Positions 34,397 through 57,498 of a DNA stretch of 62,619 bases are shown here, in pieces. The notes beneath the pieces are model-generated. The model had not been told where the DNA came from, searched no databases, and saw nothing but the letters and a program-made list of their open reading frames with translations. Position 1 is the stretch's first letter. Each line of letters begins with the position of its first letter. The stretch comes from Poseidonia sp. Lineage in GTDB: Archaea > Thermoplasmatota > Poseidoniia > Poseidoniales > Poseidoniaceae. The stretch lies in contig JBMZJQ010000004.1 in the NCBI GenBank assembly GCA_049617635.1, positions 1 to 62,619 on the forward strand. Direction: 5' to 3'. A program made the translations under genes and the position numbers.

Positions 34397-35650
34397 TCAG
34401 TACACGTCGCGCAAGTAGCGCTTTTGCTCCTTCATCATGGTCTTCTCGATGAAGTGCGTGGCGTCGTCTTCGGACATACCGCCGTGGTCGATAGCGATTT
34501 GAATCAAGGCTCGGTGAACGTCTTTGGCCATGTACTGCTTGTCGCCGCAGATGTAGAAGTAAGCGCCTCGCTCGAACCACTCCCAAATTTCAGCGCCGTG
34601 TTCTTTGAGGCGATGTTGAACGTAAATTTTCTCTTCTTGGTCTCGAGACCACGCCGTGGTAAACCGGTACAGATGGCCTTCATCAATCCACGACTCAATT
34701 TCATCCTTGTAGTAAAACTCGGTTTTCTCTGACTGGTCTCCAAAGAAGAGCCAGTTCTTACCGCCGCCACCGTCGTGAACACGCTGTTCCATGAAGGCAC
34801 GGAACGGAGCGATGCCCGTACCTGGTCCGACCATGATGATGTCGGTTTCTTTATCCTCAGGGAGGATGAACGACTTGGTAGGCGACATGAAGACGCCGAT
34901 GGGCGCACCAGACGTGTCAATTTCATCGGCCATGAATTGGGTGCACAGACCACCACGGGCTCGACCGTTGTATTCGAAGCGAACGATACCCACGGTCAAC
35001 TCAACGAAGCCCGGGTGGGCGTCATGGGACGAGGCAATGGAATACAACCGAGGTTTCAGTTTGTCAGCGAGTTCCATGAACTCTTCAGGGGCGTACTTGA
35101 CGTCAAATTCACGCATGATGTCGATGTAGTCCCTGGTCCAGAGATAATCGGCGATGGTGTCAGCGTCGGCGTTGATGGCTTCCACTTTGGAGGCCGGGTC
35201 GTCGGATGGTGCAGAAGGGCGCAAAGCGGAGGGTGTGGGTTCGTCATCGCTGGCCTGCCAAGTCGACGCGTTTCGGGTTCTGGAAAGCATGTTCATCGAG
35301 ATGCTCATGCCGCTGGAAACCACCTTTTCTGCCAGGGAATGAACGAATTTTTTGTTCGCCATGTGAACTTCGAAATCCTTCTTGAGGGCTTCGTAGAGGG
35401 TTCGCTCGCCGTTGTGAGTGGTCACGCTCATGTCTCGGTCCCATCCCTGCACGTCGATCAGTTCCTCGACGATGTGAGGGGGATTTTCAGCAATCACGCC
35501 GAGGGCGTCGCCGACTTTGTAGTCCAGTCCGGAGTCCCCGAGTTCGAAGACAATGTGACGGGTTTCTTTGCGAGAGCCTTCTCCGTTGAGGATGAAATTC
35601 TCGGTAATTTTTGTCATGTAGGGGTTCTTTGCGGACCAATCGGACGCCAT
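34397..35650 (-). CDS. CysJ/CPR-type FAD- and NADPH-binding reductase lacking the flavodoxin domain
   Basis: PRLYSIASS, GPGTGIAPFRAF, LFFG, YVQHRL, YICGD and a C-terminal RYLRDVY. Confidence 0.85.
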   Translation of the reverse strand: MASDWSAKNPYMTKITENFILNGEGSRKETRHIVFELGDSGLDYKVGDALGVIAENPPHIVEELIDVQGWDRDMSVTTHNGERTLYEALKKDFEVHMANKKFVHSLAEKVVSSGMSISMNMLSRTRNASTWQASDDEPTPSALRPSAPSDDPASKVEAINADADTIADYLWTRDYIDIMREFDVKYAPEEFMELADKLKPRLYSIASSHDAHPGFVELTVGIVRFEYNGRARGGLCTQFMADEIDTSGAPIGVFMSPTKSFILPEDKETDIIMVGPGTGIAPFRAFMEQRVHDGGGGKNWLFFGDQSEKTEFYYKDEIESWIDEGHLYRFTTAWSRDQEEKIYVQHRLKEHGAEIWEWFERGAYFYICGDKQYMAKDVHRALIQIAIDHGGMSEDDATHFIEKTMMKEQKRYLRDVY

Positions 35651-45303: not shown

Positions 45304-46194
45304 TCACTCGCCGGTGAAGTTGGCCACACGCTTCTCAACGTAGGCGGCGATGCCTTCCTTGGCGTCGCTGCTGTTGAAGAGGGCGGCTTGCAACTCGCGC
45401 TCGAGGGCCAAGTGGTACTCGAAGGGAATCTCCGGACCGGTCTGGCAGGAACGCTTGATGTTACCAACGGCTTTGACGGCCTTGTTGGGCAGGGTGAATT
45501 GGCTGCACCAGTCAAGGATGTCTCGGCGGAATTCGGCAGGGTCGCCTTCCCAAATGTGGTTGATGAGGTTGCAGGCGTGAGCGTCCTCAAAGGACATCAG
45601 TTCGCCGGTGACCATCATCTCGAGGGCCTTGGCCTTGCCGATGAGGCGGGTGAGGCGAGCGGTACCGCCGGTTCCGGCGAGCACACCGAGGTTGATCTCA
45701 GGCAGGCCAACCTTCCCGGAGTTCTTGCGAGCGATGCGGATGTCGGCCGCCATGGCGATTTCAAGTCCACCGCCGACGGCGTGGCCGTTAATGGCACACA
45801 CGACGAGTTTGGCCGTCTGCTCGAGACGGGAAAGGGTCTCGTTCGCGTGAAGGCAGAAGTTGTACTTGAAGCCGGGCGTCACGCTGTTCAGCATCTGAAT
45901 GGAGGCTCCAGCTGAGAAGAAGGACGCACCGTTACCGGTGAGAACGATGCAGGTCACGCTGTCGTCAAAGCGAGCTCGGACGATGGCTTCGTCAATGTCT
46001 CGCATCATACCGTGGGTGTAGGTGTTGGGCGAGCGGTCGTTGGGACCGTCAAGGGGCGCGCCAGCCGAGTCGGAGGTCAATTCAATGACCGCGATGCCGT
46101 TCTCGGTCACACCGTAGTTCACCAATCGGTTGGGCATCGGCTCAAGTTTCAATCCATAGAGGTCGCTCATGCCCTTCCCCACAGGGGCCGGCAT
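45304..46194 (-). CDS. Enoyl-CoA hydratase/isomerase (crotonase) family protein
   Basis: GASFFSAGASI, NGHAVGGGLEIAMAADIRIA and LPEINLGVLAGTGGTARL. The start ATG overlaps the upstream stop (TAATG at 46192-46196). Confidence 0.85.
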   Translation of the reverse strand: MPAPVGKGMSDLYGLKLEPMPNRLVNYGVTENGIAVIELTSDSAGAPLDGPNDRSPNTYTHGMMRDIDEAIVRARFDDSVTCIVLTGNGASFFSAGASIQMLNSVTPGFKYNFCLHANETLSRLEQTAKLVVCAINGHAVGGGLEIAMAADIRIARKNSGKVGLPEINLGVLAGTGGTARLTRLIGKAKALEMMVTGELMSFEDAHACNLINHIWEGDPAEFRRDILDWCSQFTLPNKAVKAVGNIKRSCQTGPEIPFEYHLALERELQAALFNSSDAKEGIAAYVEKRVANFTGE

Positions 46195-47471
46195 TATGAA
46201 GAAATCGCTGAGGTTTCTTGCACATCGGTTTCGCCGTCTTCGTTGAAGGAGACATGCCCGCCGCCGCGGCGTGCAAGTTCCCAACGTGCTTTGACCTCAA
46301 GCGCGGCCTCGCTCTGTTCCCATTGGTCGCGGGCTTTTGCCTTGCGAAAGGGCAACCTTTGCGGCCGGGTTGGACCTGGGGTGCGCTCGAGCATGAACGG
46401 TGAAGTGAGGGCAAAGACAAGACGCTTGAAGAGGCTTGGACGGAACAATCGGCCAATCCAACGCAGGCCGTCTCCACTGCGACGTTGATCCTTCATCCAA
46501 CGAACGCACATCCGCTTGAACATCCGGTCGCCTACACGGTTCATCAACCAGCGATTCGCAACGCTGGTTCGGACGTAGGGAAGGAGATGACGACGGACTT
46601 GTTTGTCATACGATGCCCCTCCGAGCATCTCCTCTGCGGCCAAGACACCGGACCATACGGCCATGCGCATGCCAAAGCCCCACATGAAGTCCTGAAGACC
46701 GCCCGACTCACCGACGTAATGCTGGCCGGTTTGAGGAACGGTGTAGAAGCCGTTGAGGGTAAAGTCCCCCTTTCCGCCAACACGCTTGATGGGCTCCATG
46801 TCAATCTCGGGGTAAAGTCGCTGATAGCACGCGATGCTTTCGTTGAGAAAGCGCTCGCTCTTTTTCTGCTTCCGCCAGAGACACGTGCAGATGAGCCCCA
46901 CACCGTCGATGATGATCAGGTAACTGTAGGCACCAGGAGCGAGTTTGTCGTTGAGCTGAAAGGCGATGTGGTTGGGATGGGAGGTGCGGAATATCTCACC
47001 AAGGGCGAGAGCAGACGTGTCTTTGGGCCCACAAGCAACGATGTTGGCGTCCTTCTCGTCGATTCTTGACTTGTAGTGCAGCGTTGCACCGGCTTCGATG
47101 GCCATCCGTTTGAAGGCCTGGTCGATGGTGTGCTCGGAGGTTCCTCGCTCAACAATCCTGTAGGCCACGCCGTCGGTTTTTGCCTGCGTAATGACATCGT
47201 CAGGGTGAATCAAATCAACCACTGAAAACGAGGTGGATTTGAACGAGGTTGAATCAAAGCCCCACGCTTCCAATTGGTCAAAGAAATCCTCGTCCATGCT
47301 CCAGTTCTCAAGCGCCTGAAAATCACCGTCAAATCGAGCACCGGAGTCCTCACGAATGTCGTGCACATGGACCTCCCGGCCTGCTTTTGCCAACACGATG
47401 GCCGCCGCCAGCCCGGAAAGACCGGCACCCATCACGGTGATGGGTTGGGATGTTGACGGGGCATCGGCCAT
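46194..47471 (-). CDS. FAD-dependent oxidoreductase (geranylgeranyl-reductase/FixC-like)
   Basis: ITVMGAGLSGLAAAIVLAKAGREVHVHD is a GxGxxG Rossmann motif. The start is set at 47471 because the longer ORF would overlap moaE. Confidence 0.75.
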   Translation of the reverse strand: MADAPSTSQPITVMGAGLSGLAAAIVLAKAGREVHVHDIREDSGARFDGDFQALENWSMDEDFFDQLEAWGFDSTSFKSTSFSVVDLIHPDDVITQAKTDGVAYRIVERGTSEHTIDQAFKRMAIEAGATLHYKSRIDEKDANIVACGPKDTSALALGEIFRTSHPNHIAFQLNDKLAPGAYSYLIIIDGVGLICTCLWRKQKKSERFLNESIACYQRLYPEIDMEPIKRVGGKGDFTLNGFYTVPQTGQHYVGESGGLQDFMWGFGMRMAVWSGVLAAEEMLGGASYDKQVRRHLLPYVRTSVANRWLMNRVGDRMFKRMCVRWMKDQRRSGDGLRWIGRLFRPSLFKRLVFALTSPFMLERTPGPTRPQRLPFRKAKARDQWEQSEAALEVKARWELARRGGGHVSFNEDGETDVQETSAISS

Positions 47472-47498
47472 GCATGGCCATGGAGGCGTGAGGTTTGA

Positions 47499-47948
47499 AT
47501 GATGTGCTTCGGTCGTTCCATCATGGCGGGCGTGGTTGTGGTTGAGGAAGCGCCCTCTTCTCTGGACCCTGTCGAATTGTTGGCGCGTTTGCCCACCGAA
47601 GGTTGTGGCGCCATCGTCAGTTTTCTTGGCATCACCCGTGGCAAGGAGGGTGAAGCAACCGTGCTTCGGTTGGAATTTGACGCTTGGCAGGACAAACTCA
47701 AACCCGTCCTGTACGACCTGGCCCAGCAAGCCATCGATGCCTTTGGGGTCCACGCCGTTGCCATGGCGCATCGAACGGGGAGCGTGGGCCCTCAAGAGCC
47801 GATTGTCGCCATCCATGTCGGTAGCCCGCATCGCAAAGAGGCGTTCGTCGCCTGTGAGTGGTTGATTGATGAATTGAAGAAGCAAGCACCCATATGGAAG
47901 AAGGAGGTCACCACCGACGGGGAGACCTGGAAGGAGGGGTTGGGTTGA
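47499..47948 (+). CDS. moaE: Molybdopterin synthase catalytic subunit
   Basis: GAIVSFLGITRG, AMAHRTGSVGPQEPIVAIHVGSPHRKEAF and APIWKKE. The start may instead be at 47523. Confidence 0.85.
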   Translation: MMCFGRSIMAGVVVVEEAPSSLDPVELLARLPTEGCGAIVSFLGITRGKEGEATVLRLEFDAWQDKLKPVLYDLAQQAIDAFGVHAVAMAHRTGSVGPQEPIVAIHVGSPHRKEAFVACEWLIDELKKQAPIWKKEVTTDGETWKEGLG

Positions 47949-49404: not shown

Positions 49405-50028
49405 ATGGCACAACAACTGCGCATCGATGTTCGCCTCCCTGAAGGCCACTGGGCGGGTGATGTCACACGCGCCCACCCCTCGGCCACGCTGCGCATCGAA
49501 CAACACATGCCGTTGAGCCGAGGAAAGGGGACGGCACGCTGTTGGAGCAGCGAGCAATTGGAGACCACCGTGGAAGGCCACGAAGGTATCGAAGAATGCA
49601 CTGGAATGGAGGAGGGGCGATTTAGCGTCACCATTTCCGCAGGGGGAGGTGGTTTCCTCCGGCCGCTTGTGGACCTTGGCGTTGTCCCTCGCACGCCGTT
49701 TGAAGTGCGAGACGGGTGGGTTGAATGGACCGTTGAGGGCACACGTGAGCAAATGAGGTCGTTGGTCGACCGCTTTCGCACCGATGAAATCCCACATCGC
49801 CTGTTGTCCACCAGAAGCACCACATCACGCCTGCTCACCCCGCGCCAACGAGAGGTCTTCGAGGTGGCTTCGCGAGAGGGGTACTGGGATGTCCCTCGAC
49901 GCATCAACCTCACCGAATTGGCAGGCTTGCTGAAGGTTGCAAAATCCACCCTTTCCGATCAACTCCAACGCATCGAATCGGCTGTGTTTCATGCCTTCAC
50001 AGACGAAATTCGTCGCCAAAGCCCCTAA
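49405..50028 (+). CDS. HTH_10 (Bat-type) archaeal transcriptional regulator
   Basis: C-terminal LTPRQREVFEVASREGYWDVPRRINLTELAGLLKVAKSTLSDQLQRIESAV. Confidence 0.8.
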   Translation: MAQQLRIDVRLPEGHWAGDVTRAHPSATLRIEQHMPLSRGKGTARCWSSEQLETTVEGHEGIEECTGMEEGRFSVTISAGGGGFLRPLVDLGVVPRTPFEVRDGWVEWTVEGTREQMRSLVDRFRTDEIPHRLLSTRSTTSRLLTPRQREVFEVASREGYWDVPRRINLTELAGLLKVAKSTLSDQLQRIESAVFHAFTDEIRRQSP

Positions 50029-50050
50029 CATGTTCGCCCGAACATGTTCG
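50027..50050. promoter_or_regulatory. Two tandem palindromic sites (candidate operator) between the HTH_10 gene and the BoxB-like gene
   Basis: AACATGTTCG occurs at 50027-50036 and 50041-50050. The second copy is part of the perfect 12-bp palindrome CGAACATGTTCG (50039-50050). It is followed by GTATAAGGAGG and the GTG start at 50078. Confidence 0.4.
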
Positions 50051-50077
50051 TAAAGGGTATAAGGAGGACCCCGCCTT

Positions 50078-51247
50078 GTGGAATGCATGGACAACCTTCC
50101 GAAAACGTGGGACGACTGGATTGAGAACTTCAAGACTTGGCAGGACAACGTCGGCTACAAGCGCGAGTGGATGGGTGATTTCGACCTCTCCATCCAGTTT
50201 GACTGGGAACGAGCCGGCGATGTCATCGAGTTCGGCGATTACGAAGGTCGAGCCAAGTGGGAGCGCTCGCTTCAGGTGCCTCATCAAAGCATGCGTGACG
50301 CCCTCGTGAGCATGATCACCGTGCAGGGCGACACCGAATTTGCCTCGGTTGAACAACAGCGTCACCTGTTGGCCACCGCACCCACCGACTACGACCGCTA
50401 TGCAGCAGCCCGCATCATGGCTGAAGAGCAACGCCACGGATGGCAAATGGCTTACCTTCTGATGACCTACTTCGGCCAACAAGGCCGACGTGAGGCGCAA
50501 AAGTTGCTCGAGCGCAACGCACAGGACGGTGACCGTCTCCTCGGTGCCTTCAACCGCCCCATGCCTCACTGGCTGGATTTCTTCTGCTACACCATGTTCG
50601 TTGACCGAGATGGAAAGTTCCAGCTCGGCATGCTCTCCACCTCAGCGTTCAAGCCATTGGCTGCCAGTATGGGCCCCATGCTGAAAGAAGAGTCCTTCCA
50701 CCTGGGCACCGGTTCCAACGGCTTGCGCCGCATCATCAAGGCCGGCGTGATTCCGCTGGACATGCTCCAGCGCTACATCAACAAGTGGGTGTCCACTGCC
50801 CACGACCTGTTTGGCGTTGACGAATCCTCGTCCGCACACTGGGCGTATGTTTGGGGCATCAAGGGCCGATGGGACGAGCGAAAGAAACTCGAGGCCAACC
50901 TCGACGTCAACAAAGAAACGCTCAACGAAGAAGCCCGCCAGCACTACCACGAGGAGATCGTGGCTGAGGTTCAGAAACTCTGCGGCTACCTCCCCGAAGG
51001 CGCTGTCGACCTCTACGTGCCGCACGAGAATTTCCACCGTGAGATTGGTCACTTCAAGCGTCAACGCTACACCGTCGAAGGCACCCTGTTTGAGGGTTCG
51101 GACGAAGCGTGGGACGCCTACATGGCAACCCATCTCCCAACAGCACAAGACGAAGAGGACCTCAAGGAATTGTTCAAGCAACAATGGGTCGCTGAGAAGC
51201 CCATGACCGCTCGTCAAATCGCCTCCGGTATCGGCGCAAGCGCTTGA
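50078..51247 (+). CDS. Diiron (ferritin-like) acyl-CoA oxygenase, BoxB-like (benzoyl-CoA 2,3-epoxidase B) / PaaA-related
   Basis: VQGDTEFASVEQQRHL, EEQRHGWQMAYLL, DRDGKFQL and KEESFH are ExxH-type diiron ligand motifs in the order I recall for BoxB. The protein is 389 aa, shorter than canonical BoxB. Confidence 0.65.
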   Translation: MECMDNLPKTWDDWIENFKTWQDNVGYKREWMGDFDLSIQFDWERAGDVIEFGDYEGRAKWERSLQVPHQSMRDALVSMITVQGDTEFASVEQQRHLLATAPTDYDRYAAARIMAEEQRHGWQMAYLLMTYFGQQGRREAQKLLERNAQDGDRLLGAFNRPMPHWLDFFCYTMFVDRDGKFQLGMLSTSAFKPLAASMGPMLKEESFHLGTGSNGLRRIIKAGVIPLDMLQRYINKWVSTAHDLFGVDESSSAHWAYVWGIKGRWDERKKLEANLDVNKETLNEEARQHYHEEIVAEVQKLCGYLPEGAVDLYVPHENFHREIGHFKRQRYTVEGTLFEGSDEAWDAYMATHLPTAQDEEDLKELFKQQWVAEKPMTARQIASGIGASA

Positions 51248-51264
51248 TGTTCAAGGTGGTTTGA

Positions 51265-51801
51265 TTGATTCCCGTCGCCCTGTATGGCGTCGACGCCGAG
51301 ATGTGCGAGCGCTTCTTCGAGGCTCTCCCAGGCTTGGTCACCGATGCTTACGAAGATCGGTCCTACATTGAATCGCTGTACGCCGTTCAAGCCGACCATT
51401 CCATCGAGCACATCCACATCGCAGACCAGTGGTCGAGCAGAGACCCCTACGCTTGGCCCGAAGACATCGTGAATGAAGTGGAGATGGTGTTGCGGACGAC
51501 AACCTATCCGGATGTTTCGTTGCTTGAACACCTCATGACCTTGGACGGTGTGGATGCTCAACGCATCTCCGAATGGATGCACTTTTCGACAAATCTCTTT
51601 CCCATCTATTCGGAAAAAGCATGCCAAACCCTTCAGCGCATGGGGCTTGACACACCTTACAAACCCGATGACATCGCCAGTTACGGTCTCTACGTCAGCA
51701 GAATTGAAGGACTCAAACTTCATGCCCCAGCCGCAGGACTACCTGAAATCGGTCTCCCCCGAACTCGGATGCTGCAGTTGGGCTTGGAGCGATTTGAATG
51801 A
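51265..51801 (+). CDS. Hypothetical protein (178 aa) translationally coupled within the BoxB-like operon
   Basis: Coding-like codon usage. Its stop overlaps the next ATG (ATGA at 51798-51801). No motif recognised. Confidence 0.55.
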   Translation: MIPVALYGVDAEMCERFFEALPGLVTDAYEDRSYIESLYAVQADHSIEHIHIADQWSSRDPYAWPEDIVNEVEMVLRTTTYPDVSLLEHLMTLDGVDAQRISEWMHFSTNLFPIYSEKACQTLQRMGLDTPYKPDDIASYGLYVSRIEGLKLHAPAAGLPEIGLPRTRMLQLGLERFE

Positions 51802-52736
51802 ACCGCCTCCGCGTCCATCTCAAACTCTTCATCGTTGCCACCATCTGGGGGTTTGGTTGGCCCGCCGGGCGTGTGGTTGCTCTTGATACGCCACCGGTCT
51901 TGGCTTCGTGGATTCGCTATGTGATGGCGTGCTGTTGCTTTCTCATCTACCTCAAACTCAGCAACAACATCGTCTTGCCCACCTCTCGGCAGTGGAAGGG
52001 CATCTTCTTGATTGGCTTTTGTTCCACCTTCCTGTATCAGTTGTTCTTCATGCTCGGCATGGCCCGAACCGCAGCCGGCGATGCCTCGTTGATGATCACG
52101 CTCAATCCACTGTTCACGGCCATTCTCGCCAGTTTCTTCCTCAAAGAAACCTTCACCAAACGGCACAGTCTTGGTGTCGTTATGGGCTTCACCGGTGTTC
52201 TCATTCTGTTCATGGCCTCACCCAACACGGACTTGATTTTGGCCGAGCGGTGGCTGGGCAACGGCTTCATCGCCTGTTCGGCCCTTTCGTGGGCCAGCGC
52301 CACGATTCTGATGAAGGGCATGATGACCGACACGGCGGAGCAAAAGGGAATGTCGCCGCTCCATTTGACCGTGTGGTCATCGATATCGGGGTTGGTGTTC
52401 CTCACACCCTTTCTCATCGGTGAAACGCTTCAGCAAGGTGCCGTTCACTCTCCGTCCCAACAGGCTTGGATAGGGATGGCGTTTCTGGCCATCCTCTCCA
52501 CCGTGGTGTCCTATGTGTGGTTTGCTGACGGCGTCATCAAAATTGGGGCTGGCAAGGCGGCCTTGTACGTGTACCTGATTCCACCCTTTGGAATCCTTGG
52601 TGGGTATCTTCTTCTCAACGAACAACTCGGTTGGTCGTTGCTCGCCTCGTTCATCATGATCGCAGGTGGCGTTGCCATCGCTCAGAGCGAGAAGCATGAT
52701 GAACGAGAACCCGCCCTCAGCGAGCATGGCCATTGA
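51798..52736 (+). CDS. EamA/DMT-superfamily transporter
   Basis: Ten hydrophobic helices arranged as two EamA-like halves (IWGFGWPAGR..., SWASATILMK...). Confidence 0.8.
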   Translation: MNRLRVHLKLFIVATIWGFGWPAGRVVALDTPPVLASWIRYVMACCCFLIYLKLSNNIVLPTSRQWKGIFLIGFCSTFLYQLFFMLGMARTAAGDASLMITLNPLFTAILASFFLKETFTKRHSLGVVMGFTGVLILFMASPNTDLILAERWLGNGFIACSALSWASATILMKGMMTDTAEQKGMSPLHLTVWSSISGLVFLTPFLIGETLQQGAVHSPSQQAWIGMAFLAILSTVVSYVWFADGVIKIGAGKAALYVYLIPPFGILGGYLLLNEQLGWSLLASFIMIAGGVAIAQSEKHDEREPALSEHGH

Positions 52737-53616
52737 ACGCGTTGCGGTGATTGGTGCGGGAACCATGGGGGCGGGAATCGCCCAAATCTGTGCTCAAGCC
52801 GGTTGGGACACCCGTCTGTACGATGCCTTTCCCGAAGGTCTTCAACGAGGTATGGATCGCATTGCAGCTTTTTGGGAGAAGGGCATTGCCCGAGGGAAAA
52901 CAACACCCGAGCAGCGGGATGCTTGGGGCGGTAACCTCCATCCTGTGGACGACCTACAGGCGGCCGTTGCCGATGCGGATTTGGTCATCGAGGCCGTCCC
53001 TGAATTGCCGGAGTTGAAGCAAGCCATCTTTGCCCAATTGGATCAGTTGGCTCCTGCCCATGCCGTGTTGGGCACGAACACTTCATCGCTATCGATAGCC
53101 GACATCGCTGCTGCCACGTCACGACCCGAGAACGTCATCGGGATGCATTTTTTCAATCCCGTTCCCATCATGCAATTGCTGGAACTGGTTCGCCATGACC
53201 GGACCTCCGACCACTCGGTAGCGATAGCTCGAGCAGCGGGAGACGCCATGGGGAAAACCACCATCCTGGTCAAGGACGTTCCCGGTTTTGCGACCAGTCG
53301 ATTGGGTGTGGTGCTCGGTAACGAAGCGATTCGTATGCTCGCAGACGGCGTTGCAAGTGCAAAGGACATCGACACCGCCATGGTGCTCGGCTACAAGCAT
53401 CCAATGGGCCCGCTTGCGCTGACCGATTTGGTCGGCCTCGATGTACGGCGAGACATTCTTCTGAACCTGCAACGCTCGTTTGGCAACGATGCTTACGCAC
53501 CCCATCCATTGTTGGAACGCTTGGTCAACGAAGGCCGCCTCGGTAAGAAAACCGGCAAAGGCATCTACGACTGGAGCAGTGGAAATCCCGAAGAAACCGA
53601 CCTCAACGGGCCCTGA
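52726..53616 (+). CDS. 3-hydroxyacyl-CoA (3-hydroxybutyryl-CoA) dehydrogenase
   Basis: IERVAVIGAGTMGAGIAQICAQAG, NTSSLSI, HFFNPVPIMQLLE and the C-terminal dimerisation domain. Confidence 0.9.
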   Translation: MAIERVAVIGAGTMGAGIAQICAQAGWDTRLYDAFPEGLQRGMDRIAAFWEKGIARGKTTPEQRDAWGGNLHPVDDLQAAVADADLVIEAVPELPELKQAIFAQLDQLAPAHAVLGTNTSSLSIADIAAATSRPENVIGMHFFNPVPIMQLLELVRHDRTSDHSVAIARAAGDAMGKTTILVKDVPGFATSRLGVVLGNEAIRMLADGVASAKDIDTAMVLGYKHPMGPLALTDLVGLDVRRDILLNLQRSFGNDAYAPHPLLERLVNEGRLGKKTGKGIYDWSSGNPEETDLNGP

Positions 53617-53652: not shown

Positions 53653-54492
53653 ATGGAGCAATCCATCCCAACACCGTGGGACGGCGTCGCCACGCAACCT
53701 GATGAAGACGCCCCCAATACTACGCAGGACAACGCTCCCGCGACGATGGCAGGAGGATTCCATGGGGCTTCACCCCAACCGGTGGTGGTGGACACCACCA
53801 CCAAAGGACCGAAGATTCCGATGATCATCGCGGCCGTGCTCATCGCCTTCGGGTTGCTTGGCTTTGTCATCGGTGGAATCGCCGCCGCCTCGGTTGAGGA
53901 AACGCTCGAAAATCTCTCAACTGCGGACTACACCACCGATATCGGACCGAGCGGTACCCTCGTTCATGACGATGCTGACGGCGCAGGTGAGGCAGGATGG
54001 TACTTGCTCATTCCCGGCGACCCCAAGGCCGATGAAAACAACAACGGGATCATCGATGCGTGCGAGGGCATCCATTTTTCCATCCAAGATGCGGATGGCG
54101 ACGATGCGAGCGAACGAGTGGCCGACATTTCATGTGAGTACGAGAGGAAGGGGAGCGGTGCTGACGTACCGTATTTTGATATTGAAAACCACATCGTCGT
54201 AGCCGTCATTTGCAACACGCTCCCCGACGATACGGGCGAGGTCCGACATCGCTGTGAAATCGGTGAATCCTTGACCGTTTCAAACGATGGCGGAGTGAAC
54301 ATGTCGGTGGTGGACCTCGACGAGATGTACATTCCTTACCTCGAAGAAATCATTGGGGGCGGCATCCTCTCTGCTGGCTCTTTTGGTGCAGGATGTTGTT
54401 CCTTATGCGGCGGAATCGTGTTTCTCATCGTTGGCTTGACCCGAATCGGCGGTGGGCGTCAACAACCCAACGTCGTGTACCACATTCACTGA
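53653..54492 (+). CDS. Hypothetical bitopic membrane protein with an acidic extracytoplasmic domain
   Basis: TM helices IPMIIAAVLIAFGLLGFVIGGIAAA and GCCSLCGGIVFLIVGL. No motif recognised. Confidence 0.55.
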   Translation: MEQSIPTPWDGVATQPDEDAPNTTQDNAPATMAGGFHGASPQPVVVDTTTKGPKIPMIIAAVLIAFGLLGFVIGGIAAASVEETLENLSTADYTTDIGPSGTLVHDDADGAGEAGWYLLIPGDPKADENNNGIIDACEGIHFSIQDADGDDASERVADISCEYERKGSGADVPYFDIENHIVVAVICNTLPDDTGEVRHRCEIGESLTVSNDGGVNMSVVDLDEMYIPYLEEIIGGGILSAGSFGAGCCSLCGGIVFLIVGLTRIGGGRQQPNVVYHIH

Positions 54493-54493
54493 A

Positions 54494-55273
54494 TCAGTCA
54501 AACCGTGGCTGGCGCTTTTCCAAAAAGGCGGCCACACCTTCACGAAAAGCCTCGGTGGTACCAGCGGCCTCAATGAGCGTACGCTCATGGTCAAGGTGGG
54601 TTGAAAACTCGTTATCGGATTGAACGTGGAGCAGGTGCTTGGTGGCTTCCTTGGTGTGTGGCCCCCAAGAGGACCACATCGTGGCCAAGCCGATGGCTGT
54701 TTCAATGAGAGAGTCCGGGTCAACCAACACATCGATAGCCCCGTATTCATGGGCTTCTTCACCGCTCCAAATTTCATTGCCCATGAAAAATCGACGGGCG
54801 CGTTGTTCGCCCACGAGCCTGGGCAGCAACCACGTGGTCCCACCATCAGGTGAGAGTCCCATGCCTGCATAAGAAGCCGCCATACGAGCATCGTTCGTGC
54901 CCACTCGAGCATCGCAAGCAAGGGCCAAACCAAGCCCACCACCTGCAGAAACGCCGTTGAGAGCAGCCACCACAACGGTAGAGGAGGTGCGGATGCGTTG
55001 AAGCAAGGGGTGCAACACCCCTGTCAGTTCCCGAATGAGCTCTGGTGCATCGTTGTTGTCAATGGACGCTTGAAACGCCTTGATGTCTGCTCCAGCGGAG
55101 AAAAAACGGCCCTCACCAGTCAGGACCAGCGCTTTGGTGGTCGAATCACGCAAACCGGCATCAATGGCCTCAGCAATCAAAGGAAGGAAGGCTCTGGAAA
55201 ACGATTGCGTGGAGGCCTGGCCGGCCATTTTGATCAAACGAACATTCCCTCGTTGTTCAACCTCAACCGCCAA
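54494..55273 (-). CDS. Enoyl-CoA hydratase (crotonase)
   Basis: GRFFSAGADIKAF and NGVSAGGGLGLALACDARV. Confidence 0.9.
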   Translation of the reverse strand: MAVEVEQRGNVRLIKMAGQASTQSFSRAFLPLIAEAIDAGLRDSTTKALVLTGEGRFFSAGADIKAFQASIDNNDAPELIRELTGVLHPLLQRIRTSSTVVVAALNGVSAGGGLGLALACDARVGTNDARMAASYAGMGLSPDGGTTWLLPRLVGEQRARRFFMGNEIWSGEEAHEYGAIDVLVDPDSLIETAIGLATMWSSWGPHTKEATKHLLHVQSDNEFSTHLDHERTLIEAAGTTEAFREGVAAFLEKRQPRFD

Positions 55274-55282
55274 TCCATCACC

Positions 55283-56734
55283 TCACAATTTCACGTTGAC
55301 GTTCTTGACCTTGGTGTAGAATCGAAGTGCATCTTGACTCTGTTCGATGCCTATACCCGAATGCTTCCAGCCCGTGAAGGCGGTCTGTGGGAAGGTGATG
55401 GGGTATTCGTTGATGGAGACCATGCCGCACTCCAAGTCTCGCGCCATTCGATGGGCACGGCCAAGGTCGTTGGTCCACACGCCGTTAAGTAGACCGAACG
55501 GGGTGTCGTTGGCCAGGGCCAGTGCTTCTTCATCGGTGGTGAAGGACGTGACCGCCAAGACGGGTCCAAACAGTTCGTCCTGGAACAACAAGTGGTTGCT
55601 CTCAACGCCCGTCACGACCGTGGCTTCCATGAAGGCACCTTCTCTCTCGAGCGCATGACCACCCAAGACGAGGTTTCCACCTTCGTTCAAGCCGGCTTGA
55701 AGTTTTTCAAGCACCTCGGCCCGATGCGATTCGTGAACCAAACTGCCCATGCGAACGCCTTCTTCCATACCTGGACCGACCGGCCATTTTGAAATTTCAT
55801 CACAAACGGCCTGAACGAGATCGTCATGCACGTCTTCGTGAACCAACAACCGAGAACCGGCCCAACACATCTGGCCTGCGTTCATGAAGATGCCAAAACA
55901 AATGGCTTTGGCAGCGTAGCGGAGGTTGGCGTCCGAGAAGACGATGTTGGCACCTTTTCCACCCAATTCAAGGGTGACAGGTGTCAACTGTTCACTGGCT
56001 TTGGCCATCACCGTTTTTCCAGTCGGCACCCCGCCGGTCAAGACGACGCCGTCAACGCCTGCGTGGCCTGCGAGAGCGTCACCTGCCAAGGCGCCCGACC
56101 CAGTGATCACTTGCAACACGCCGGAAGGCAAGCCGGTTTCTGCTTCATCGATGGCCTTTGACCACGCCAACAAGGACAGCGGCGTCCAGGATGCCGGTTT
56201 GGCGATGACCGTGCAGCCGGCAGCAAGGGCTGGTGCGATGGAACGAAGTGCCAGTTGGAGGGGGAAGTTCCACGGGACGATGTGGGCCGTGACGCCAAGC
56301 GGTTGACGAAGCGTGTAGTTCAACCTGGGACCGGGGACCGGGATGGTGGTGCCCTCGATTTTGTCGGCAAGGCCGGCAAAATACTCCAGCGTCCATGCAC
56401 CATAGCGAATTTCCGAAAGGGCTTCACGGAAGGTCTTCCCGTTGTTACTGGATTCAATCACCGCCAATTCCTTGGCTTTCGCATACGTCACAGCAGCCAT
56501 TTTGTTGAGGATTCGCCCACGCTGTGCGGGATCCATCGCCCGCCAGTCTGCATGTTCAAACGCCGACCTGGAGGCCTCTACACAGCGGTTGACGTCCTCG
56601 ACGGTTGCACGAGGAACGGTGGCAAGCACTTCACCGGTTGCCGGGTTGAGCACCTCGCTGGTTTCTCCGTTCGCTGACGCAGTCCATTCACCTGCAATCC
56701 ACATCTGTTCATCGGCCATGAAACGCCCAAGCAA
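55283..56734 (-). CDS. NAD(P)+-dependent aldehyde dehydrogenase
   Basis: VTLELGGKGANIVF, catalytic Cys in NAGQMCWAGSRLLV, and EEALALAND. Confidence 0.95.
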   Translation of the reverse strand: MLGRFMADEQMWIAGEWTASANGETSEVLNPATGEVLATVPRATVEDVNRCVEASRSAFEHADWRAMDPAQRGRILNKMAAVTYAKAKELAVIESSNNGKTFREALSEIRYGAWTLEYFAGLADKIEGTTIPVPGPRLNYTLRQPLGVTAHIVPWNFPLQLALRSIAPALAAGCTVIAKPASWTPLSLLAWSKAIDEAETGLPSGVLQVITGSGALAGDALAGHAGVDGVVLTGGVPTGKTVMAKASEQLTPVTLELGGKGANIVFSDANLRYAAKAICFGIFMNAGQMCWAGSRLLVHEDVHDDLVQAVCDEISKWPVGPGMEEGVRMGSLVHESHRAEVLEKLQAGLNEGGNLVLGGHALEREGAFMEATVVTGVESNHLLFQDELFGPVLAVTSFTTDEEALALANDTPFGLLNGVWTNDLGRAHRMARDLECGMVSINEYPITFPQTAFTGWKHSGIGIEQSQDALRFYTKVKNVNVKL

Positions 56735-56811: not shown

Positions 56812-57498
56812 ATGTGCTCCTCGGGGACAGTGGCCAGCATGACACGGACCGTAGGGCTGGCCCAAAGCACGGCCCAAACGCTGACACAGCGCCCTCCGCG
56901 GTTGTTGATCATCGCGGGTGCAACCGGTGTGGGAAAGTCAACCGCTGCCGTGGCGGTCGCCCAACGAGGCGGGTTCACTCGCGTCATGTCGACCGATGCC
57001 ATTCGCGAAATCATGCGAGCCACCGACGAGGAACGAAACGTGCCTGCCCTTCATCGCTCCTCGTTCTCAAAGGGTGACAGTGGCGAGCCTGTTCTTGATT
57101 GGAACGAGACCTGCCTCGCTGTTGAAGCCGGCATCATGGCGACGATGGAGCGGGCCCGGAGAGAGGGCATTGATTTGCTGATTGAAGGCGTTCACATGGT
57201 GCCCAGTGCTCGTTTGGTGCGAGCGTGGGAAGAGGCCGGCGGTGTGGCCCTCGGCATCGTGATGGTGGTGGACGAGGAAAACGCTCACTTGTCCATGCTC
57301 AAATCCCGTGATGCCCATTCCTACCGCCGTGCCGACCGCTATGTTGCCAACTTCAAGCGTATTCGAGCCATTCAAGACGGGTTGATCGAACGCGCAAAAA
57401 TTGCCAACTGGACCATCGTTGACCCAACACGTGTAGACAGCGATGTGGAACGCATCTACACCTTGCTCAATCGTGCCATCAACGACCACGAAGCGTGA
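56812..57498 (+). CDS. 2-phosphoglycerate kinase-like P-loop kinase
   Basis: LLIIAGATGVGKSTAAVAVAQRGGFTRVMSTDAIREIMRA matches the archaeal 2PGK (COG2074) core. The start may be at 56839. Confidence 0.65.
   Translation: MCSSGTVASMTRTVGLAQSTAQTLTQRPPRLLIIAGATGVGKSTAAVAVAQRGGFTRVMSTDAIREIMRATDEERNVPALHRSSFSKGDSGEPVLDWNETCLAVEAGIMATMERARREGIDLLIEGVHMVPSARLVRAWEEAGGVALGIVMVVDEENAHLSMLKSRDAHSYRRADRYVANFKRIRAIQDGLIERAKIANWTIVDPTRVDSDVERIYTLLNRAINDHEA

Follow-up and report, generated by a model that had tools for sequence, protein, structure and literature searches.

A short BoxB-type oxygenase in a Marine Group II archaeon

The Marine Group II (MGII) archaea count among the ocean's most abundant surface microbes, and we know of no member of the group in culture. 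Here we describe a gene cluster around a short diiron oxygenase of one such archaeon, a Poseidonia species of the order Poseidoniales with a 1.83-Mb, 85%-complete genome. Database proteins nearly identical to its own carry the names Poseidonia or Poseidoniaceae. The cluster lies in a stretch of 62,619 nucleotides of contig JBMZJQ010000004.1, which we call the window. The oxygenase is a relative of BoxB, the benzoyl-coenzyme A (benzoyl-CoA) epoxidase of the bacterial Box pathway, and judging from its sequence it looks catalytically competent. We regard it as an O2-activating enzyme that most likely epoxidises the ring of benzoyl-CoA or of a very close aryl-CoA, and we give this reading a probability of roughly 60%. 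The oxygenase gene belongs to the following string.

49405-50028, forward strand: transcription regulator of the HTH_10 family (PF04967, 53.6 bits)
50027-50050, no strand assigned: operator-like repeat AACATGTTCG, two copies 14 bp apart, between the regulator stop and the oxygenase start
50087-51247, forward strand: short BoxB-type diiron oxygenase of 386 residues (PF05138; ATG at 50087, in-frame GTG at 50078)
51265-51801, forward strand: 178-residue partner protein with no Pfam or NCBIfam family (TTG start)
51798-52736, forward strand: EamA/DMT transporter (PF00892, 142.7 bits)
52726-53616, forward strand: 3-hydroxyacyl-CoA dehydrogenase, PaaH/Hbd-like (PF02737 and PF00725)

All five genes of the original prediction are present as open reading frames (ORFs) at these positions, and their families agree with Pfam and NCBIfam. 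The overlaps it described are real as well: an ATGA is found at 51798-51801, and the likely ATG of the dehydrogenase (52726, in an ORF that opens at 52666) lies 11 nucleotides inside the end of the transporter gene. The TTG start of the 178-residue ORF stands five bases behind GGTGG, and relatives start with ATG followed by the same residues. The dehydrogenase matches PaaH with 250.8 bits, and all of its NCBIfam matches are under the equivalog cut-offs. The four motifs by which the oxygenase had been recognised all occur in its translation.

These motifs had suggested an enzyme nearer to BoxB than to PaaA of the phenylacetyl-CoA (Paa) pathway, and the scores for families, solved proteins and folds bear this out. 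Among the NCBIfam models BoxB (TIGR03225) scores 233.9 bits (E 3.4e-69) in three stretches, and PaaA (TIGR02156) scores 45.1 bits, below its equivalog cut-off of 280. Among PDB sequences BoxB gives 187 bits (E 6.9e-54), the archaeal SSO1313-type protein 4MUD gives 72.6 bits and PaaA about 31 bits. The superfamily model PF05138 (PaaA_PaaC) matches residues 69-307 with 60.4 bits, above the gathering cut-off of 28.5. A search of the whole genome with the BoxB model returned nothing above its cut-off (best score 171.6 bits). In a structural model built from 33 homologues (pLDDT 93.7), the best fold match is BoxB with a TM-score of 0.86-0.87 (0.66-0.72 by target); PaaA gives about 0.5 and SSO1313 0.48 by query. 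BoxB of Azoarcus (Aromatoleum) evansii (PDB 3PER, 3PF7, 3PM5, 3Q1G) is about 31% identical over the model, with an E-value of 4e-43 for the core region. The alignment spans BoxB residues 65-433 with gaps; the BoxB regions missing from the short form are the N-terminal 55 or so residues, parts of the C-terminal half and the C-terminus.

The diiron ligands of BoxB are Glu120, Glu150, His153, Asp211, Glu240 and His243, and benzoyl-CoA is contacted by Gln116, Thr119, Ser123, Phe193, Phe203, Phe206 and Thr210, of which Gln116 forms a hydrogen bond with the substrate (PMC5489048). Because our alignment to the solved BoxB uses the enzyme's own numbering, these residues can be transferred directly to the oxygenase. 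A check of the six ligands had been proposed, and all six are matched by E84, E114, H117, D173, E202 and H205. None of these residues varies in 35 archaeal (Thermoplasmatota) and 65 bacterial short forms. The contacts Q116, T119, S123, F193 and F203 (in BoxB numbering) are identical here and invariant in the same archaeal and bacterial sequences. For comparison, five of the seven contact sites have other residues in PaaA of Escherichia coli, and four of the ligands are lost in PaaC of E. coli. The oxygenase is highly conserved overall, with 83 invariant columns in 33 sequences. Apart from two substituted contacts, the positions of F206 and T210, it resembles BoxB at the active-site features that were tested, yet it is outside the curated BoxB family.

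The phylogeny agrees with this picture. In two trees the short archaeal and bacterial forms group with the 470-residue BoxB proteins (SH-aLRT support 97-98), and PaaA, PaaC, the 235-residue archaeal forms and two divergent metagenomic proteins are outside this group. The oxygenase of the window falls with BoxB, so that neither the phylogeny nor the ligand check, both proposed as tests of the original prediction, refutes it. The enzymes of the MGIIa branch, to which the window belongs, and of the MGIIb branch are each monophyletic and are sisters to one another, with another Thermoplasmatota family next, a pattern that fits vertical descent. The placement of canonical BoxB varies: one tree makes it the sister of the archaeal short forms, and the other puts it inside them, on a long branch.

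The 235-residue ferritin-like proteins of the SSO1313 type belong to the same superfamily and share only the four-helix core; they form a separate branch of the tree and have no adjoining 178-residue gene. In two loci of other Thermoplasmatota (L058 in genome G173 and L059 in genome G201) such forms adjoin a crotonase or 3-hydroxyacyl-CoA dehydrogenase gene and keep the BoxB ligands and most of the contact residues.

Gene neighbourhood in archaea and bacteria

Several further genes of the window are relevant to the oxygenase.

34397-35650, reverse strand: CysJ-like flavodoxin-less FAD/NAD protein
45304-46194, reverse strand: crotonase ECH1 (ORF opens at 46284, likely ATG at 46194)
46194-47885, reverse strand: FAD/NAD(P)-binding oxidoreductase of 563 residues (PF13450 alone)
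54494-55273, reverse strand: crotonase ECH2, isomerase type (nearest solved relative PaaG of E. coli)
55283-56734, reverse strand: aldehyde dehydrogenase (ALDH; PF00171, 533.7 bits)

The families assigned earlier to the two crotonases, the ALDH and the flavodoxin-less CysJ-type protein are correct. ECH1 has both hydratase glutamates, in the motifs GGGLE and PEINLG. We rejected ECH1 as a specific relative of BoxC, since the BoxC model gives it 82 bits and ordinary hydratases give 170 bits. In ECH2 the first catalytic glutamate is replaced with glycine, and an Asp-containing loop of the isomerase type stands at the second site; its best NCBIfam matches are alternative oxepin-CoA hydrolase and PaaG, both under the cut-off. 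A link of the ALDH to BoxD, at which the original prediction hinted, was not supported. The protein is of a generic class-1/2 type with best NCBIfam matches to betaine-aldehyde and phenylacetaldehyde dehydrogenase types, all under cut-off, and its 25 best family matches include neither BoxD nor PaaZ. It is a candidate for a functional stand-in for BoxD, not an orthologue.

The short BoxB is a core gene of Poseidoniales: we found it in 148 of 151 genomes and in all 22 sampled genera. In the sample of 301 genomes from across Thermoplasmatota it is present in 92. No copy turned up in the eight genomes of the sister family in the same class. Its neighbours are strikingly stable over 20 Poseidoniales loci. 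In MGIIb loci the FAD oxidoreductase, ECH1, the oxygenase, the 178-residue gene and the dehydrogenase follow one another on one strand, with ECH2, the ALDH and a P-loop kinase just beyond the co-directional string. In the MGIIa branch the ECH1 block is separated from the oxygenase. When 14 loci from nine further Thermoplasmatota families are compared, the recurring genes are reduced to a crotonase, the oxygenase, the 178-residue gene and the dehydrogenase. Since only these four genes recur elsewhere, we treat the operon of the window as the MGIIa version of an older four-gene core.

Thus the five-gene operon proposed earlier exists as a string of genes, and two of its members are outside the conserved core. 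The EamA transporter stands between the 178-residue gene and the dehydrogenase in all eight MGIIa-branch loci (families f1 and f2; L035-L042) and only there. The HTH_10 regulator precedes the oxygenase in seven of these eight loci and in one MGIIb locus (L025); in the MGIIa branch it is mostly accompanied by MoaC and GlpX. The regulator and the transporter are lineage-specific additions.

The short form is not an archaeal speciality. A scan with one genome per species revealed bacterial short forms with identities of 48-54%; their hosts are Acidobacteriota, Gemmatimonadota, Binatia, Myxococcota-type and other bacteria, many of them from soil. The pocket signature of the MGIIa protein is common to all 65 bacterial short forms. 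The bacterial operons contain an orthologue of ECH1 (55-64% identical to the archaeal protein), an ALDH, a second crotonase directly before the oxygenase and often a dehydrogenase. In a tree of crotonases the archaeal and bacterial ECH1 sequences form one tight clade (17 entries, support 99) on a long stem, and we therefore regard ECH1 as a dedicated companion of the short oxygenase. Taken over Thermoplasmatota and several bacterial phyla, the conserved module consists of the oxygenase, the dedicated ECH1 and a 3-hydroxyacyl-CoA dehydrogenase, and a second crotonase and an ALDH are usually near.

Some bacterial neighbours are informative about the substrate. The alpha subunit of 4-hydroxybenzoyl-CoA reductase is encoded in 14 Acidobacteriota loci, with a score of 1042.5 against an equivalog cut-off of 994.55, and a gamma-like subunit of this molybdenum enzyme accompanies it. 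All 12 Gemmatimonadota loci carry a gene resembling 3-oxoadipyl-CoA thiolase (572 bits; cut-off 605). The reductase makes benzoyl-CoA, and the thiolase ends both the Box and the Paa pathways. Together with the pocket residues, these neighbours give the best reason to think that benzoyl-CoA or a very similar compound is the substrate of the family; for archaea the argument is indirect.

Several other genes deserve mention. The FAD/NAD(P) oxidoreductase at 46194-47885 is linked to the oxygenase within Poseidoniales only and was not seen in the other archaeal or the bacterial loci. Its only Pfam match is to a Rossmann motif, some of its relatives are without the first 140 or so residues, and a search of PDB sequences gave no match. 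As an electron donor it is a purely conjectural candidate. The P-loop kinase (56812-57498, forward strand; best match 2-phosphoglycerate kinase, 131.9 bits, under cut-off) keeps its position beside the ALDH in loci of both MGII branches, MGIIa and MGIIb. A very acidic ORF of 279 residues (53653-54492, forward strand; isoelectric point 4.05) separates the dehydrogenase from ECH2; it has no Pfam or NCBIfam family and no tblastn match in 20 syntenic Poseidoniales loci, and it may be genus-specific or not a gene.

The CysJ-like protein, which had been put forward as the reductase partner, is not supported in this role. It occurs throughout the class, including in genomes without the oxygenase, and was not found in other oxygenase-bearing families of Thermoplasmatota. 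It tracks taxonomy, not the oxygenase, to which it is linked only through conserved large-scale gene order, and we rejected it as a dedicated reductase. In genomes of MGIIa and MGIIb alike (e.g. G024, G014, G002, G027 and G015) about 16 kb separate its gene from the oxygenase, in a large-scale arrangement that the whole order has kept.

The 178-residue partner protein

The original prediction singled out the 178-residue protein as a possible new subunit and proposed a check of its co-occurrence with the oxygenase. In the 301 genomes sampled across the phylum both genes are found in 84, the oxygenase only in eight, the 178-residue gene only in none, and neither in 209; the sampled genomes are mutually related, so such counts overstate independence. 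Five of the eight exceptions have the 235-residue type of oxygenase, and two of the other three have only a partial copy of the gene. The protein is therefore a strictly co-occurring partner candidate. Its gene is directly 3' of the oxygenase on the same strand in 145 of the 151 Poseidoniales genomes, and the three Poseidoniales genomes without the oxygenase are also without the partner. The two genes adjoin in all 20 Poseidoniales loci and in 12 of the 14 loci from other Thermoplasmatota families. Search among longer proteins revealed no fused forms; a 565-residue frame in G222 is an upstream extension.

The gene was found only in Thermoplasmatota and is missing from all 65 bacterial loci, where its place is taken by unrelated genes: a glycerophosphodiester-phosphodiesterase-like gene, or a rhodanese gene with an ArsC-like gene. 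In Gemmatimonadota the former stands between the oxygenase and the dehydrogenase (L082:7103-7768, L085:7204-7887, L091:6989-7795), i.e., in the slot of the archaeal 178-residue gene.

The partner diverges much faster than the oxygenase, with MGIIa-MGIIb identities of about 30% and about 60%, respectively. Its invariant residues in 33 sequences are Y34, P82, H106, F107, Y140 and R168; Glu161 is near-invariant, and D136 is conserved within Poseidoniales only. The lack of a cysteine pattern makes a metal cluster unlikely. The family is acidic, with a median isoelectric point of 5.4. No Pfam or NCBIfam family was found at E-values up to 0.1, and a profile search of PDB sequences returned chance-level homeobox matches only. 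A halohydrin epoxidase match in a single-sequence PDB search (19 bits) was taken as chance.

Structure gives more information. The AlphaFold model (pLDDT 88.6) is all-helical. Foldseek found nothing in the PDB below an E-value of 0.001, nor even below 2. In an exhaustive search with VIA-align the best 23 matches, with Z-scores from 8.5 to 4, all belong to the HhH-GPD superfamily and are mostly DNA glycosylases. The best of them is Ogg2 of Thermotoga maritima (3N0U), with a Z-score of 8.5 over 157 residues at 4.4 A, a value that helical proteins reach by arrangement alone. In the ESM Atlas the model matches, with a TM-score of 0.72, a cluster in which 14% of members have the OGG family; other matches at about 0.7 are bacterial clusters with OGG, DUF6308 or HI_0787_N, and also domains fused to restriction-type proteins. 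An HhH-GPD (OGG-like) fold is likely but not certain on the basis of these models. In its overall helical fold the model resembles HhH-GPD glycosylases (3N0U, EndoIII, MagIII, AGOG), and a Leu...Gly stretch at residues 123-127 resembles their hairpin. The 178-residue protein differs from them in that it has no match at the sequence level, is acidic and is tied to an oxygenase gene. HhH-GPD enzymes have a conserved catalytic Asp after the hairpin, and the bifunctional ones also a Lys; the invariant columns of the 33 sequences contain neither Asp nor Lys. We read the partner as a protein of probable glycosylase fold that serves some other purpose near the oxygenase.

A second, unrelated glycosylase-fold gene occurs near this oxygenase family. 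It is of the MUG type (uracil-DNA glycosylase superfamily), was seen in 10 bacterial loci (L114:4541-5068 and nine others) belonging to Acidobacteriota operons, and sits between ECH1 and the second crotonase.

Proposed route and alternative explanations

The description that suits the cluster best is that of a short-BoxB aryl-CoA epoxidase module without the canonical reductase and ring-opening enzyme, with a partner of glycosylase-like fold in archaea. We infer the substrate, every reaction step and the physical binding of the partner. In such a route the oxygenase would convert an aryl-CoA to the 2,3-epoxyaryl-CoA, and hydrolytic ring opening, for which a crotonase or the 178-residue protein might be considered, neither of them a clear candidate, would yield a semialdehyde. 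The ALDH would oxidise the latter to dehydroadipyl-CoA, which ECH2 might isomerise in the manner of PaaG. Hydration by ECH1 and oxidation by the dehydrogenase would then give 3-oxoadipyl-CoA, and this could be cleaved by a thiolase encoded elsewhere; the genome has two generic thiolases outside the cluster.

The 178-residue protein is probably a subunit of the oxygenase or the next enzyme of the route, and an obligatory companion of the oxygenase in archaea. Two specific roles can be imagined for it as a new component of an aryl-CoA epoxidase: a hydrolase that opens the epoxide or oxepin ring in place of BoxC, or an adaptor that stands in for BoxA by connecting the oxygenase with an archaeal electron donor. 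Tyr34, Tyr140, His106, Arg168 and the near-invariant Glu161 would suit the chemistry of an epoxide or oxepin hydrolase. We consider this more specific proposal doubtful. A diverged HhH-GPD DNA glycosylase that merely shares the operon is also an unlikely explanation of the gene. It would account for the 23 best structural matches with Thermotoga Ogg at their head and for the OGG-containing ESM Atlas cluster, and a MUG-type glycosylase is after all found in 10 bacterial operons. Against it are the lack of an invariant Asp or Lys and of any Pfam or NCBIfam match, the acidity of the family, and its distribution, as the gene is accompanied by the oxygenase wherever it occurs among 301 genomes and nearly always follows it directly; as for the Z-score of 8.5, helical arrangement alone can produce it.

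Other readings concern the oxygenase itself. It might act as a desaturase, hydroxylase or epoxidase on a non-aromatic enoyl- or branched acyl-CoA in the breakdown of fatty acids, isoprenoids or amino acids, in which case ECH1 and the dehydrogenase would be its ordinary partners in beta-oxidation. The genes linked to it at the core do encode a 3-hydroxyacyl-CoA dehydrogenase and a hydratase that has kept both catalytic glutamates, the oxygenase gene occurs throughout the order as central catabolism predicts, no aryl-CoA-forming enzyme was found in the genome, and the soluble acyl-(acyl carrier protein) desaturases share the ferritin-like diiron fold, albeit distantly (TM-score about 0.3). We nevertheless find this reading rather unlikely, given five of the seven benzoyl contacts of BoxB invariant in 100 short-form sequences and bacterial operons with genes for the 4-hydroxybenzoyl-CoA reductase alpha subunit and a 3-oxoadipyl-CoA thiolase-like protein. 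The genome also has four acyl-CoA dehydrogenases, so there is no gap in beta-oxidation to fill, and the variant in which the oxygenase replaces such a dehydrogenase was rejected as unneeded.

A phenylacetyl-CoA epoxidase of the Paa type, serving phenylalanine breakdown in archaea that degrade protein, with ECH2 as PaaG, ECH1 as PaaF and the dehydrogenase as PaaH, seems very improbable. The Paa lower pathway, with its PaaABCE epoxidase, does share with our cluster the superfamily PF05138 and a logic in which ring epoxidation of a CoA ester is followed by crotonase, ALDH and beta-oxidation-like steps; PaaG is the solved protein nearest to ECH2 and, with alternative oxepin-CoA hydrolase, heads its NCBIfam matches, the dehydrogenase resembles PaaH (250.8 bits), and NCBI labels some homologues as phenylacetate-CoA oxygenase subunits. 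However, PaaA scores 45 bits where BoxB scores 234, the pocket residues are those of BoxB and differ from those of the Paa enzyme, and all Paa-type matches are far under their cut-offs. In addition, the genome yielded neither a phenylacetate-CoA ligase nor an indolepyruvate oxidoreductase, and PaaB, PaaC, PaaD and PaaE were not seen adjoining the oxygenase, in agreement with what had been noted before. That the protein is a non-catalytic ferritin-like protein similar to PaaC is scarcely credible: the missing reductase partner and the score under the BoxB cut-off could be cited for it, but the six ligands are invariant in archaea and bacteria, whereas PaaC of E. coli lost four, and the sequence is very highly conserved.

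We thus prefer the reading of the oxygenase as an epoxidase of benzoyl-CoA or a close aryl-CoA, and the following observations weigh against it. The score of 233.9 bits is under half of the BoxB equivalog cut-off of 499.1, and the protein is about 90 residues shorter than BoxB (386 against about 473), so it is not a full-length BoxB. Two of the seven contacts are not conserved: the position of F206 is Tyr in MGIIa, including this protein, and in all bacterial sequences (Phe in MGIIb), and the position of T210 is Val here and Val or Ile across the entire short family. The aromatic-specific neighbours, i.e., the reductase and the thiolase, are found in bacteria and are absent from the archaeal loci. 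The ALDH of the window is only 37-44% identical to that of the bacterial operons, ECH2 is in a crotonase clade separate from the bacterial operon crotonase, and neither is an orthologue of its bacterial counterpart. The enzymes that accompany it most closely, a hydratase and a hydroxyacyl-CoA dehydrogenase, are commonplace in beta-oxidation, and near-universal retention in an order of photoheterotrophs suggests central metabolism over an accessory aromatic pathway.

The missing partners belong to the same side of the balance. The absence of BoxA and of full-length BoxC had been noted for the window and extends to the whole 85%-complete genome: the best match to BoxA has 76.6 bits against a cut-off of 459.2 and involves only the FNR part of the CysJ-like protein, and the best match to BoxC has 82.4 bits against 712.3 and is ECH1, over model positions 7-175 only. 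Benzoate-CoA ligase, phenylacetate-CoA ligase and indolepyruvate oxidoreductase are likewise all below cut-off in this genome. With BoxA, the ligases and the oxidoreductase all below cut-off, there is no visible source of aryl-CoA or of electrons. No recurrent reductase or ferredoxin was found near the oxygenase in 18 archaeal or 65 bacterial loci. The short form also differs from BoxB in its unrelated 178-residue companion in archaea and, in the archaeon of the window, in a genome with no BoxA reductase or two-domain BoxC above cut-off. The proposal of an archaeal epoxide-type aryl-CoA route with non-canonical partners is favoured by the comparative context, and the absence of the canonical partners is borne out; the short form itself is not confined to archaea.

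The genes appear in environmental RNA data. The oxygenase, the 178-residue gene, the transporter and the dehydrogenase are all represented by contigs (at least 99% alike) from two metatranscriptome studies, and one of these contigs (50907-51413) spans the junction between the oxygenase and its partner; against this evidence it must be said that assembled contigs do not prove a common transcript and may stem from DNA carried over into the libraries. The contigs left the regulator and the 3' half of the dehydrogenase uncovered, which is uninformative on expression. A Red Sea study of 2016 listed boxB among the highly expressed MG-II genes (PMC5069720). Our literature search found no paper analysing the short family, the 178-residue partner or the bacterial relatives.

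The family is compact and highly conserved, hence directly testable by expression and assay. If the partner does have either of the roles suggested above, a DNA-glycosylase fold has been recruited to CoA-ester metabolism. To our knowledge, BoxA is the only known reductase and BoxC the only known ring-opening enzyme of the Box system; a short-BoxB family that works without them implies a solution for electron supply and ring cleavage in the epoxide strategy that has not been described. If the cluster does serve O2-dependent degradation of benzoate-type CoA esters, MGII archaea would help to turn over aromatic dissolved organic matter in the ocean, a role currently unassigned.

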